4,005 nt of DNA from a virus (IMGVR_UViG_2778261417_000003); one strand, 5' to 3'. Shown: positions 1 to 4,005, numbered from the stretch's first letter. The notes: a model not told the origin generated them from the sequence alone. Program-made: numbers and translations.

Positions 1-474
1 AACTGTACGATTAAGGGCATGCTGGAGGCGAATCAGGTCAGAGGCGATTTTGTTAAAACAGTATCCAAATCATTCCCGAAGAAGGCTGGTACGTGGGGTA
101 ACACGGAAACACCAAACGGGACGGTTACAGTCACCATAAGCGATGATCATAACTTTGACCGTCAAATCATTATTCCGCCCATTATTTTTAACGGTGTGGC
201 GTATGACGATCCGGGGAGCGGAAATAACCCCGGAGGCACGCGATACACGGGTTATGGTTTTGAAGTTCGCAAAAACGGCGTATTAATCGCATCCAGAGAA
301 ACTAAAGGGGCCATTCCCGGTAGTTACAGTGCAGTTATTGATATGCCGAGTGGTGGTGGTAGCGTCACTCTGGAGTTTAAGATTTTCCAGAAAGGCAATC
401 AGGGGGCAGGCAATATCACCGACTGTACGGTGATTGTGACCAAAAAAGCCGCTTCCGGCATCAGTATTCGTTGA
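1..474 (+). CDS. J: C-terminal fragment (5'-truncated by the window edge) of a J-like tail tip / host-specificity protein (central tail fibre, receptor-binding end)
   Basis: Frame 1 is open from base 1 (aac tgt acg att aag ggc atg ...) to TGA at 472-474, so the ATG at 19 in the ORF track is internal, not the true start. The gene sits immediately upstream of lom and stf, which is the lambda late-region order J-lom-stf. The product is Gly/Thr/Val-rich and looks beta-rich, as expected for a fibre tip domain. Identity as J is by synteny and general resemblance, not a verified alignment. Confidence 0.7.
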   Translation, partial: NCTIKGMLEANQVRGDFVKTVSKSFPKKAGTWGNTETPNGTVTVTISDDHNFDRQIIIPPIIFNGVAYDDPGSGNNPGGTRYTGYGFEVRKNGVLIASRETKGAIPGSYSAVIDMPSGGGSVTLEFKIFQKGNQGAGNITDCTVIVTKKAASGISIR

Positions 475-492
475 AATTGTTATAACCCATAT

Positions 493-520
493 AAGGGCAC
501 CAGAAATGGTGCCTTTTTTA
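493..520 (+). terminator. Rho-independent terminator downstream of the J-like gene
   Basis: Hairpin with stem GGCACC (496-501) pairing GGTGCC (508-513), extendable by A/U and G/U pairs to AAGGGCACC / GGTGCCUUU, 6-nt loop agaaat, followed by a run of six T (514-519). The T-run is on the + strand side only, so it is oriented for + strand transcription. Confidence 0.7.
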
Positions 521-532
521 TTGCAGAAAAGC

Positions 533-538
533 GAGAGG
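533..538 (+). promoter_or_regulatory. Shine-Dalgarno sequence for lom
   Basis: GAGAGG at 533-538, with 5 nt (taatt) between it and the ATG at 544. Confidence 0.55.
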
Positions 539-543
539 TAATT

Positions 544-615
544 ATGCGTAAACTTTATGCCGCCATTTTTTCCGCAGCCATTTGTCTGGCCGTATCCGGT
601 GCGCCTGCATGGGCA
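544..615 (+). other. Predicted signal peptide of Lom (24 aa, cleavage after AWA)
   Basis: Basic N-terminus (MRK), hydrophobic core (LYAAIFSAAICLAVSGA), and an A-x-A motif (AWA) followed by SEHQ. Confidence 0.7.
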
Positions 616-1143
616 TCTGAACATCAGTCCACGCTGAGCGCGGGGTATCTTCATGCCTCGACGAACGTTCCCGGCAGTGATGATCTGAACGGGATTAACG
701 TGAAATACCGTTATGAGTTTACGGACACACTGGGGATGGTGACGTCGTTCAGCTATGCAGGAGACAAGAATCGCCAGCTGACCCATTACAGCGATACCCG
801 CTGGTATGAAGATTCCGTGCGTAACCGCTGGTTCAGCGTGATGGCGGGGCCGTCTGTACGCGTGAATGAATGGTTCAGCGCGTATGCGATGGCAGGCGTG
901 GCTTACAGCCGTGTGTCGACTTTCTCCGGGGATTATCTCCGCGTAACTGACAACAAGGGGAAAACGCACGATGTGCTGACCGGAAGTGATGACGGTCGCC
1001 ACAGCAACACGTCTCTGGCGTGGGGAGCTGGCGTGCAGTTTAACCCGACCGAATCCGTGGCCATTGATATTGCTTATGAAGGCTCCGGCAGTGGCGACTG
1101 GCGCACTGACGGGTTCATCGTGGGTGTTGGTTATAAGTTCTGA
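544..1143 (+). CDS. lom: Lom, an Ail/Lom/PagC-family 8-stranded beta-barrel outer-membrane protein (lysogenic-conversion / virulence-associated)
   Basis: The 199-aa ORF begins MRKLYAAIFSAAICLAVSGAPAWA-SEHQSTLSAGYLHAS..., which closely matches the lambda Lom sequence as I recall it. It has a typical Sec signal peptide with an AWA-SE signal peptidase I site, alternating amphipathic beta-strand segments, and a C-terminal ...VGVGYKF ending in Phe, the usual OMP beta-barrel assembly signature. Position between J and stf matches lambda. Confidence 0.92.
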   Translation: MRKLYAAIFSAAICLAVSGAPAWASEHQSTLSAGYLHASTNVPGSDDLNGINVKYRYEFTDTLGMVTSFSYAGDKNRQLTHYSDTRWYEDSVRNRWFSVMAGPSVRVNEWFSAYAMAGVAYSRVSTFSGDYLRVTDNKGKTHDVLTGSDDGRHSNTSLAWGAGVQFNPTESVAIDIAYEGSGSGDWRTDGFIVGVGYKF

Positions 1144-1169
1144 TTAGCCAGGTAACACAGTGTTATGAC

Positions 1170-1196
1170 AGCCCGCCGGTTCAGGCGGGCTTTTTT
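1170..1196 (+). terminator. Rho-independent terminator downstream of lom
   Basis: Perfect GC-rich stem GCCCGCC (1171-1177) pairing GGCGGGC (1184-1190), closed by an extra A-T pair (1170/1191), 6-nt loop ggttca, then TTTTTT (1191-1196). It starts 27 nt after the lom stop codon. Confidence 0.85.
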
Positions 1197-1198
1197 GT

Positions 1199-1203
1199 GG
1201 GGT
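1199..1203 (+). promoter_or_regulatory. Weak Shine-Dalgarno-like element for stf
   Basis: GGGGT at 1199-1203, 4 nt upstream of the ATG at 1208. It is G-rich but only a partial match to AGGAGG. Confidence 0.4.
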
Positions 1204-1207
1204 GAAT

Positions 1208-4005
1208 ATGGCAGTAAAGATTTCAGGTGTACTGAAAGACGGCACAGGAAAACCGGTACAGAACTGCACAATCCAGCTGAAAGCAAAACGTAACAGCACC
1301 ACGGTGGTGGTGAACACGCTGGCATCTGAAAATCCGGATGAAGCCGGGCGTTACAGTATGGACGTTGAGTACGGTCAGTACAGCGTTATTCTGTTGGTGG
1401 AGGGATTCCCGCCGTCACATGCCGGGACCATCACCGTGTATGAAGATTCTCAACCCGGTACGCTGAATGATTTTCTCGGTGCCATGACGGAGGATGATGC
1501 CCGTCCGGAGGCACTGCGCCGTTTTGAGCTGATGGTGGAAGAGGTGGCGCGTAACGCGTCCGCGGTGGCACAGAACACGGCAGCCGCGAAGAAATCAGCC
1601 AGCGATGCCAGCACATCAGCCCGTGAGGCGGCAACCCATGCGACTGATGCTGCAGGCTCAGCACGCGCAGCCAGCACGTCAGCCGGACAGGCCGCGTCGT
1701 CGGCTCAGTCAGCGTCTTCCAGCGCAGGAACGGCATCAACAAAGGCCACTGAAGCGGAAAAAAGTGCTGCCGCTGCAGAGTCCTCAAAAAGCGCGGCGGC
1801 CACCAGTGCCGGTGCCGCGAAAACGTCAGAAACGAATGCTGCAGCGTCACAAAAATCAGCAGCCACTTCTGCATCCACTGCGACGACGAAAGCGTCAGAA
1901 GCCGCCACTTCAGCCCGGGATGCGGCGGCCTCCAAAGAGGCGGCAAAATCATCAGAAACGAGCGCAGCCTCGAGCGCCAGCAGCGCAGCTTCCTCGGCAA
2001 CGGCGACAGCAAATTCTGCGAAGGCGGCCAAAACGTCCGAGACGAACGCTAAGTCTTCTGAAACGGCAGCGGGACAGAGTGCCTCAGCTGCGGCAGGCTC
2101 AAAAACAGCGGCTGCGTCGTCTGCCAGCGCCGCGTCAACAAGTGCCGGGCAGGCCTCAGCCAGTGCCACCGCCGCCGGAAAATCGGCAGAAAGCGCCGCA
2201 TCATCCGCTTCAACAGCCACAACGAAGGCTGGCGAAGCCACTGAGCAGGCCAGCGCAGCAGCGAGGTCAGCTTCCGCAGCGAAGACATCCGAAACGAACG
2301 CGAAAGCGTCGGAAACCCGTGCAGAATCCTCAAAAACGGCTGCCGCATCGTCCGCCAGTTCGGCGGCGTCATCGGCATCATCTGCGTCTGCTTCAAAAGA
2401 TGAGGCGACCAGACAGGCGTCAGCAGCGAAGGGCAGCGCCACGACAGCATCCACGAAGGCGACAGAGGCAGCTGGCAGTGCGACGGCGGCAGCACAGAGC
2501 AAAAGTACGGCGGAATCCGCGGCAACGCGCGCCGAGACAGCGGCAAAACGGGCAGAGGATATTGCATCCGCCGTGGCGCTTGAGGATGCGAGCACGACGA
2601 AAAAGGGGATAGTCCAGCTCAGCAGTGCGACCAACAGTACGTCTGAAACGCTGGCGGCAACGCCAAAGGCAGTAAAATCAGCCTATGACAATGCAGAGAA
2701 ACGTCTGCAGAAAGACCAGAACGGCGCTGATATACCCGATAAGGGACGCTTCCTGAACAACCTTAACGCGGTCAGTAAAACAGACTTTGCTGATAAGCGT
2801 GGTATGCGTTATGTGCGGGTTAACGCTCCTGCAGGTGCAACATCTGGAAAATATTACCCTGTTGTTGTTATGCGTTCTGCTGGCTCAGTAAGCGAACTGG
2901 CATCAAGGGTCATTATCACCACGGCAACGCGAACCGCAGGCGATCCGATGAATAACTGCGAGTTTAACGGATTTGTTATGCCTGGTGGCTGGACTGACAG
3001 GGGGCGTTATGCTTATGGAATGTTCTGGCAATATCAAAACAATGAACGAGCCATCCACTCAATAATGATGAGTAATAAGGGCGATGATTTGCGCTCTGTG
3101 TTCTATGTTGATGGCGCTGCTTTCCCTGTTTTTGCGTTTATCGAAGATGGCCTGTCAATATCCGCACCTGGTGCTGATCTCGTTGTTAATGATACGACCT
3201 ATAAGTTTGGTGCAACAAATCCGGCGACTGAATGTATCGCGGCGGACGTTATCCTTGATTTTAAGAGTGGGCGTGGTTTTTATGAGTCTCATTCGTTAAT
3301 CGTTAACGATAACTTGTCGTGCAAAAAACTTTTTGCCACAGACGAAATTGTAGCGCGTGGTGGTAATCAGATTCGAATGATAGGTGGGGAGTATGGTGCA
3401 TTATGGCGTAATGATGGCGCTAAAACTTACCTGCTGCTTACCAATCAAGGTGATGTTTATGGTGGCTGGAATACATTAAGACCGTTTGCTATTGATAACG
3501 CAACCGGCGAGCTGGTTATTGGAACCAAACTGTCCGCAAGTCTGAACGGTAATGCATTAACAGCAACAAAGCTGCAAACACCAAGACTGGTTTCTGGGGT
3601 TGAGTTTGATGGTTCCAGAGATATTACTTTAACCGCCGCGCACGTGGCTGCTTTTGCCAGAAGGGCAACGGATACATATGCCGATGCGGATGGTGGCGTT
3701 CCCTGGAATGCCGAATCAGGCGCTTACAATGTCACCCGCTCTGGCGACAGCTATATTCTGGTTAACTTCTATACCGGAGTCGGAAGTTGCCGGACCCTGC
3801 AGATGAAGGCGCATTACAGAAATGGAGGTCTGTTCTACCGTTCCTCAAGAGATGGCTATGGTTTTGAGGAAGGCTGGGCAGAAGTTTATACCTCGAAAAA
3901 TCTTCCACCAGAAAGCTACCCAGTTGGCGCACCAATCCCGTGGCCATCAGATACCGTTCCGTCTGGTTATGCCCTGATGCAGGGGCAGACTTTTGACAAA
4001 TCTGC
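1208..4005 (+). CDS. stf: Side tail fibre protein Stf, long mosaic form, 3'-truncated by the window edge (at least 932 codons present)
   Basis: Hand translation in frame 2 from ATG 1208 shows no stop codon through base 4005. The N-terminus [62 protein letters not shown]... matches the lambda Stf N-terminus as I recall it. A long Ala/Ser/Thr-rich repeat region follows, then a central module, and the window ends in ...[29 protein letters not shown], which resembles the conserved lambda Stf / T4 gp37-type segment. The ORF track omits it because it lacks a stop in the window. The length and central module resemble the long Stf homologues of E. coli lambdoid prophages (StfR-like) more than lambda Stf itself. 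Confidence 0.9.
1820..2572 (+). repeat. Three imperfect in-frame tandem repeat units inside stf (about 210, 252 and 290 bp), each starting with the motif K-T-S-E-T-N-A
   Basis: The units start at 1820 (aaa acg tca gaa acg aat gct), 2030 (aaa acg tcc gag acg aac gct) and 2282 (aag aca tcc gaa acg aac gcg). Each also carries a recurring SSK-x-AAA-S/T-SA submotif (near 1778, 2093, 2321). Composition is almost entirely Ala/Ser/Thr with scattered Lys/Glu, and very GC-rich at the DNA level. Confidence 0.8.

Follow-up and report, generated by a model that had tools for sequence, protein, structure and literature searches.

An accessory lom cassette behind the J terminator of a lambda-like Escherichia coli (pro)phage is probably reached mainly by the late transcript

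The window analysed here, meaning the whole stretch of viral DNA (4,005 nt), carries J, lom and stf sequences in that order on one strand, separated by two short intergenic segments. The features recognised, with coordinates counted from the first nucleotide of the window, are as follows:

1–474, + strand: 3′ end of the tail-tip/host-specificity gene J, encoding the C-terminal receptor-binding domain (Pfam Ig_GpJ_C, E = 1.5e-26; relatives annotate it as J)
493–522, + strand: J terminator, hairpin and U-tract (consensus scan, folding and covariation; annotated in mEp460 and phage 21)
523–1195, + strand: optional lom cassette (~673 nt) with leader, lom and its own terminator (comparison with lom-less junctions)
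523–543, + strand: lom leader with Shine-Dalgarno sequence (read from the sequence)
544–1143, + strand: lom, encoding a 199-aa Ail/Lom-family outer-membrane β-barrel precursor (Pfam PF06316, PHROG 108 and PDB matches)
1153–1165, no strand assigned: perfect 13-bp palindrome TAACACAGTGTTA in the lom 3′ untranslated spacer (read from the sequence)
1170–1196, + strand: lom's own terminator (consensus scan and folding; annotated in mEp460 and Ayreon)
1197–4005, + strand: stf leader GTGGGGTGAAT and the side-tail-fibre gene stf, starting at 1208 (Pfam phage_tail_N, Gp34_trimer and Collar)

The last 157 codons of J fall within the window (stop codon TGA at 472–474), with the gene extending upstream beyond the window start, and the only intergenic gaps are those of 69 nt between J and lom and 64 nt between lom and stf. 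A preliminary description of this DNA had located lom between two structural tail genes, and the Pfam domains of its neighbours agree, with J on the left and the side tail fibre on the right. The window is a very common lambdoid prophage segment: related DNA was found in 5,108 out of 5,426 complete E. coli genomes (~94%), 1,162 of which cover at least 80% of the window, and the closest phages (ev099, Kati, PhiR34_1 and mEp332) are 96%–97% identical to it across the full 4 kb.

The lom product matched Pfam Ail_Lom (PF06316) from end to end (residues 1–199 of 199, E = 1e-119, 397.7 bits against a cut-off of 23), as well as Pfam OMP_b-brl, and was assigned to PHROG 108, "Lom outer membrane protein" (E = 2e-108). 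Matches in the PDB were to lambda Lom (9wso, E = 2e-48) and, at approximately E = 1e-18, to OmpX (1qj8) and Ail (3qra). Reading the translation by eye gave an N-terminal Sec-type signal peptide, MRKLYAAIFSAAICLAVSGAPAWA followed by SE (MRK, a hydrophobic core, then AWA/SE; encoded at 544–615), and a C-terminus ending in GVGYKF, the terminal aromatic Phe of which is a β-barrel insertion signal. By homology, the protein is predicted to be a Sec-exported, BAM-inserted, eight-stranded outer-membrane β-barrel of the Ail/Lom/OmpX family, and the full-length Ail_Lom match, signal peptide and C-terminal Phe uphold the earlier statement that lom is intact. Lom scored 113 bits for Rck-type complement resistance and 97 bits for OmpX, short of the respective NCBIfam equivalog cut-offs of 258 and 176 bits, so it is a member of the family rather than an orthologue of either protein, and function cannot simply be transferred.

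Full-length lom was present in 70 out of 75 window-type copies, and the median dN/dS over 63 distinct alleles was ~0.21; purifying selection thus maintains the gene. The five shortened copies (L028, L050, L064 and two other loci) encode 160, 166 or 47 amino acids and are occasional decaying alleles in prophages, an ~83-nt deletion near the lom 3′ end being common to three of them. The leader preceding lom (523–543, GCAGAAAAGCGAGAGGTAATT) carries the Shine-Dalgarno sequence GAGAGG (533–538) 5 nt ahead of the ATG; it was identical in all 76 of 76 window-type lom loci, with a single substitution in one further locus. G+C content is similar in lom (55.3%) and the N-terminal part of stf (55.2%) and lower in the J end (47.9%), the flanks being themselves mosaic. 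An antisense ORF of 239 aa (283–1002, − strand), opposite lom and the J end, was rejected as a chance ORF, given that the longest stop-free stretch was 62–192 aa in 67 out of 69 loci.

Both neighbouring genes show signs of exchange. The C-terminal receptor-binding domain of J (window 1–474; loci L003–L146) occurs as at least three main types with ~43% mutual identity, followed by the same DNA downstream from the J stop, and the J stop and terminator mark a mosaic recombination joint. On the other side, stf matched Pfam phage_tail_N (E = 8e-72), Gp34_trimer and Collar and remains open, with no stop codon, through the window end; its residues 1–94 matched the tail fibre protein 9e7m in the PDB. 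The middle of the gene (1550–2600) encodes ~350 residues of Ala/Ser/Thr-rich low complexity, with 60%–66% G+C and strong AT skew, and here we also encountered long spurious ORFs in other frames and on the opposite strand, together with weak sub-threshold isrG matches (~20 bits versus 100) on the − strand. Tandem Repeats Finder detected no array in the window, and an Rfam scan of the window gave sub-threshold noise alone (ST7-AS1, and isrG within the stf repeats at 21 bits, where the gathering score is 100), with no match in the lom flanks. The C-terminal part of stf (2700–4005; Gp34_trimer and Collar) is lower in G+C (43%–50%) than the remainder of the gene, and similarity in many relatives ends within stf at ~2046 or ~2690, suggesting that the distal fibre may be exchanged as a mosaic.

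The preliminary description had further placed canonical intrinsic terminators on both sides of lom. In a consensus scan of the window, the two top-ranked terminator-like sites were 493–516 followed by TTTTTTATT and 1170–1191 followed by TTTTTT. When both strands of the 4-kb window were scanned under strict requirements (≥8 bp of stem, ≥5 G-C pairs and ≥6 T among the next eight bases), two sites only were recovered, both intergenic and both on the + strand, which is the coding strand. As a chance control, we generated 300 random first-order Markov sequences with the dinucleotide transition frequencies of the window; these contained 0.017 strict-criterion sites per 4 kb, and two sites were found in none of the 300. 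No T-run follows either hairpin on the reverse strand. Each side of lom accordingly bears a G+C-rich hairpin and U-tract, on the coding strand and 3′ of a gene, at the positions originally proposed. A literature search for older work on the lambda t′J terminators did not find any.

The upstream hairpin (493–516) has the core GGGCACCA-gaaa-TGGTGCC, with a GAAA loop, and its U-tract TTTTTTATT lies at 514–522; it folds at −15.6 kcal/mol (z = −3.5 versus shuffles) and the mEp460 and phage 21 records list it as a rho-independent terminator. The 8-bp core was kept in almost all of 18 distinct variants sampled from more than 130 related loci, among which two pairs had changed on both sides (G-C to A-U and C-G to U-A) and one pair had become U.G. 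Overall, 89% of cells were paired, versus 33%–60% with the partners slid, and the covariation score was reached by 0 of 500 shuffles. The stem is thus held by compensatory substitutions. A third form of the upstream hairpin, GGGCACCTCAGGAGGTGCC followed by TTTTTTATT, accompanies the 207-aa O157-type lom.

The downstream hairpin (1170–1191, AGCCCGCC-ggttca-GGCGGGCT, then TTTTTT to 1196) has an 8-bp stem with seven G-C pairs and a 6-nt loop, and folds at −18.2 kcal/mol (z = −3.4 versus shuffles). It is almost invariant (95% of cells paired in 14 variants), and the changes that do occur are one-sided, mostly giving G.U on the + strand; because no pair changes on both sides, covariation is uninformative at this site. 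The spacer between the lom stop codon and this hairpin measures 26 nt. Within it, the palindrome TAACACAGTGTTA (1153–1165) is intact in lambda and in 65 out of 78 lom 3′ flanks, although the entire spacer is almost invariant and the count is consequently weak evidence of selection; the palindrome might bind a protein or form a small hairpin in the RNA.

Hairpins of this kind might do something other than terminate transcription, for example by stabilising mRNA 3′ ends, serving as processing sites, or acting as conserved linkers that provide recombination joints between mosaic modules. The operon around both of them is transcribed by terminator-resistant polymerase, and the intergenic segments, where mosaic breakpoints are located, by far exceed the J C-terminus and the 5′ two-thirds of lom in conservation. 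Nonetheless, the form is canonical at both sites (a G+C-rich stem directly before at least six U), the pairing upstream is kept by compensatory changes, an unrelated hairpin occupies the same place in lambda, and the one-sided changes mostly yield G.U, on the + strand only. Stabilising, processing or joint roles are in any case compatible with termination of unmodified polymerase, and we regard hairpins that are not working terminators as improbable.

Whether both terminators belong to lom could be judged from junctions that lack the gene. In phage 21 (OL657228), J is followed directly by stf: the J stop, spacer, hairpin (GGGCGCCA-gaaa-TGGCGCC) and TTTTTTATT lead straight into TGTGGAGTGAATATG, the stf start, and GenBank annotates a terminator there. 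A pattern search for this type of junction identified 60 more lom-less loci in IMG/VR, and the same 48-nt left flank was found both with and without lom. Comparison with these empty sites delimits the optional DNA to approximately 523–1195 (673 nt), consisting of the 21-nt leader, lom, the 26-nt spacer, and lom's own hairpin and T-tract; the cassette ends inside both T-tracts, such that each boundary is ambiguous by ~1–2 nt. All three main receptor-domain types of J (~43% mutual identity) occur with and without lom, which is hence a free accessory element, and the DNA from the J stop onward remains linked to lom despite the swapped J C-terminus. The empty site in phage 21 and in 60 viral contigs, together with the matching 48-nt left flanks, corroborates the earlier suggestion that lom is an accessory, "more-on" element.

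The same comparison divides the two terminators. The downstream one accompanies lom and is missing from empty sites. The upstream one is also found in lom-less phages, and for this reason it falls outside the cassette, as a resident feature of the J-stf junction. The original picture of a terminator-bracketed moron accordingly stands for the downstream terminator, which belongs to lom, and has to be amended for the upstream one, which is the resident terminator of J. Two further loci are of note with respect to this slot. One (L076, a viral contig) was considered as an empty site and ruled out as a rearranged prophage with an IS200-like transposase adjoining stf; in its positions 1–3000, J and lom are replaced ahead of the stf start by a transposase of IS200/IS605 type, a gene for a cold-shock protein and another terminator, with the joint exactly at GTGGGGGGAATATG. 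In Gifsy-2 (L083 3208–3500), the J/stf slot holds a different cassette, an unrelated 80-aa signal-peptide ORF with its own hairpin and T-tract, which suggests that the slot may be a hot spot for secreted-protein cassettes.

A classical moron comprises its own promoter, gene and terminator (PMC3594210). We searched for a promoter of lom by several means, all directed at sigma-70; a promoter for another sigma factor, or an activator-dependent one, is conceivable. In a sigma-70 consensus scan (9-of-12 threshold), neither the window nor lambda showed a promoter-like site close to lom. Weight matrices run over the 420 nt preceding lom in four sequences (the window, lambda, Stx2 phage 1717 and mEp460) likewise gave no site above the 95th percentile of shuffles. 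The best weight-matrix match in the window (338–365), which is not conserved, falls within J, ahead of the terminator. Individual candidates inspected by eye were also rejected, namely TATAAG (490–495), a TTTATAACCC motif, and a TATAAA after the T-tract in lambda; each lacks an acceptable −35 and is not shared by the phages that carry lom. With just 21 nt from the T-tract to the lom ATG, the leader is too short for a promoter. On the 5′ side of lom, nothing but the terminator is consistently linked to the gene.

In the preliminary description, lom was proposed to be transcribed independently of the late operon. The sequence lends this no support, owing to the lack of any sigma-70-like promoter and the 21 nt between T-tract and ATG. 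In phages without lom, the arrangement of terminator, ribosome-binding site and ATG seen here for lom is found for stf. Since stf is a late structural gene, it must be reached by terminator-resistant polymerase, and by parsimony the same should apply to lom; read-through by Q-modified polymerase is, on these grounds, the best-supported route to the gene. The late transcript would then be the main route, with Q-modified RNA polymerase ignoring both terminators and lom being expressed alongside the tail genes. While the prophage is repressed, the J terminator would shield lom from upstream transcription and the lom terminator would in turn shield stf, and any lysogenic expression of lom would come from a weak or non-canonical promoter or from leaky read-through. 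Our main reading, to which we assign a probability of approximately 0.8, places the window in a lambda-like E. coli (pro)phage as its J-lom-stf segment, in which an intact, ~673-nt accessory lom cassette sits directly behind the T-tract of the J terminator and is reached mainly by the late transcript.

Published expression data touch on both the lytic and the lysogenic state. Late expression of lambda lom is described in PMC9836094, as strong in the lytic cycle, and in PMC12366544, each paper referring to Liu et al. 2013, and the gene was scored as non-essential and dispensable for plaques (PMC10695390). In lysogens, lambda lom has been reported as expressed (PMC7067206, PMC1151598), while a microarray study of lambda lysogens recorded no lom signal and described the lom promoter as little known (PMC2147009). 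For relatives, lom of Phi24B was expressed equally with and without induction (PMC3342100), and lomW of O157 Sakai rose 4.6-fold in early stationary phase (PMC2241611). The lysogen reports from lambda, Phi24B and O157 imply some promoter that is invisible to sigma-70 consensus scans, and a non-sigma-70 promoter or leaky read-through is possible for lom.

These reports bear most directly on the view of lom as a classical moron, that is, an autonomous gene with its own promoter, expressed from the repressed prophage and conferring lysogenic conversion in the form of adhesion or serum resistance. The presence/absence polymorphism of lom, the terminator that the cassette brings with it, the expression of the lambda, Phi24B and O157 homologues without induction, and membership in the Ail/Lom family all suit such a gene. 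Against it stand the 420 nt ahead of lom in four phages, where no sigma-70-like site attained the 95th percentile of shuffles, the mere 21 nt between T-tract and ATG, a 5′ side to which the terminator alone is consistently linked, and the one microarray study without a lom signal in lambda lysogens. We consider full autonomy of this kind possible but doubtful. The associated role in adhesion was borrowed from lambda Lom, to which the window protein is only 46% identical, with the likeness mostly in the C-terminal strands, and the adhesion phenotype of lambda is therefore not simply transferable. By analogy with the lambda Lom literature, Lom may act in adhesion at the cell surface, in masking the receptor that the phage itself uses, or in both.

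The second of these functions would make lom a late gene that serves the phage rather than the bacterium, with Lom made mainly late in infection and binding or masking the phage's own receptor, which would lessen the wasteful re-adsorption of progeny, or superinfection. Over-expressed lambda Lom strongly protects against lambda-vir and not T7, and the 2025 authors propose superinfection exclusion or prevention of re-adsorption (PMC12366544); the strong lytic-cycle expression (PMC9836094) points the same way, and a promoterless position inside the late operon suits a late gene. PDB entry 9wso holds chains of lambda Lom and of the maltoporin LamB, the lambda receptor, in one solved structure; this implies a Lom-LamB complex and fits receptor masking. 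The window is nonetheless removed from that system, with identities of just 46% between the two Lom proteins and 36% between the receptor domains of the two J proteins. As an indirect test of receptor masking, we compared Lom type with J receptor-domain type, and the outcome was mixed. The same Lom type is found with four or five J receptor-domain types of ~43% mutual identity (five for window-type Lom), and lom is freely present or absent with each J type, which would speak against tight receptor-specific coupling; lambda Lom was found only with lambda J, in nine loci that are possibly clonal. PADLOC gave no defence-family match for Lom. A primarily phage-serving function is, in our estimation, somewhat unlikely for this Lom.

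A bolder version joins the transcriptional and functional arguments. Here, lom would be a promoterless passenger of the late operon, transcribed essentially only by Q-modified polymerase and masking the receptor against re-adsorption or superinfection, and the slot at the J terminator would be a general docking site for promoterless secreted-protein cassettes with their own terminators. We advance this combination as a speculation that is unlikely to hold in its entirety. The reading that we prefer is limited to an accessory cassette behind the J terminator that is reached mainly by the late transcript.

Much of the arrangement is already known from the literature and GenBank, including lom itself, its position between J and stf, its moron-encoded status (a review counts Lom among moron-encoded proteins; PMC3594210) and both flanking terminators. 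The present analysis adds a precise cassette boundary from empty sites, assigns the upstream terminator to the J-stf junction rather than to the cassette, and describes a cassette without room for a promoter, which sharpens an old gap in the definition of the lom promoter. A promoter-less cassette also fits the recent idea of Lom serving the phage late in infection.

With regard to known proteins, Lom shares the Pfam families Ail_Lom and OMP_b-brl with the eight-stranded outer-membrane barrels Ail (Yersinia), OmpX, PagC and Rck, without reaching the equivalog level of Rck or OmpX at the scores given above. The closest classical system is the J-lom-stf (orf-401) segment of lambda (NC_001416, 18.9–19.7 kb), where the gene order is as in the window and a hairpin and T-tract precede the lom ATG by ~20 nt. 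The lambda upstream hairpin is unrelated in sequence, CGTCCGGGAACGGGCG followed by TTTTATT at the same place, whereas the lom 3′ flank, terminator and stf start are nearly identical to those of the window, as is the C-terminus of Lom, which is identical. Lambda Lom has 206 rather than 199 aa and, as noted, is 46% identical overall, alongside a J receptor domain that is 36% identical. The lom gene is itself mosaic: its last 128 nt (1016–1143, versus L002 1059–1186), 3′ flank and the stf start are 83%–94% identical to lambda, and its first 470 nt have no detectable nucleotide similarity to lambda lom.

Like the morons of HK97 and HK022 (Juhala et al. 2000; Cumby et al. 2012, PMC3594210), lom is an extra gene between conserved tail genes, variably present and equipped with its own terminator. 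It differs from them in having no detectable promoter of its own, and in a G+C content (55%) that is unlike that of the J end (48%) and like that of stf (55%). Phages mEp460 (JQ182728), Ayreon, ev099, Kati and PhiR34_1, and many E. coli prophages, share 94%–97% nucleotide identity with all or part of the window; they differ from it by allelic changes only, plus mosaic swaps in the J and stf C-termini, and the GenBank records of mEp460 and Ayreon already annotate both rho-independent terminators around lom. Phage 21 shares with the window the J stop, spacer, hairpin, TTTTTTATT, and the stf ribosome-binding site and start, all without the 673-nt cassette, and its hairpin differs from that of the window by one compensatory pair, with G-C in place of A-T.
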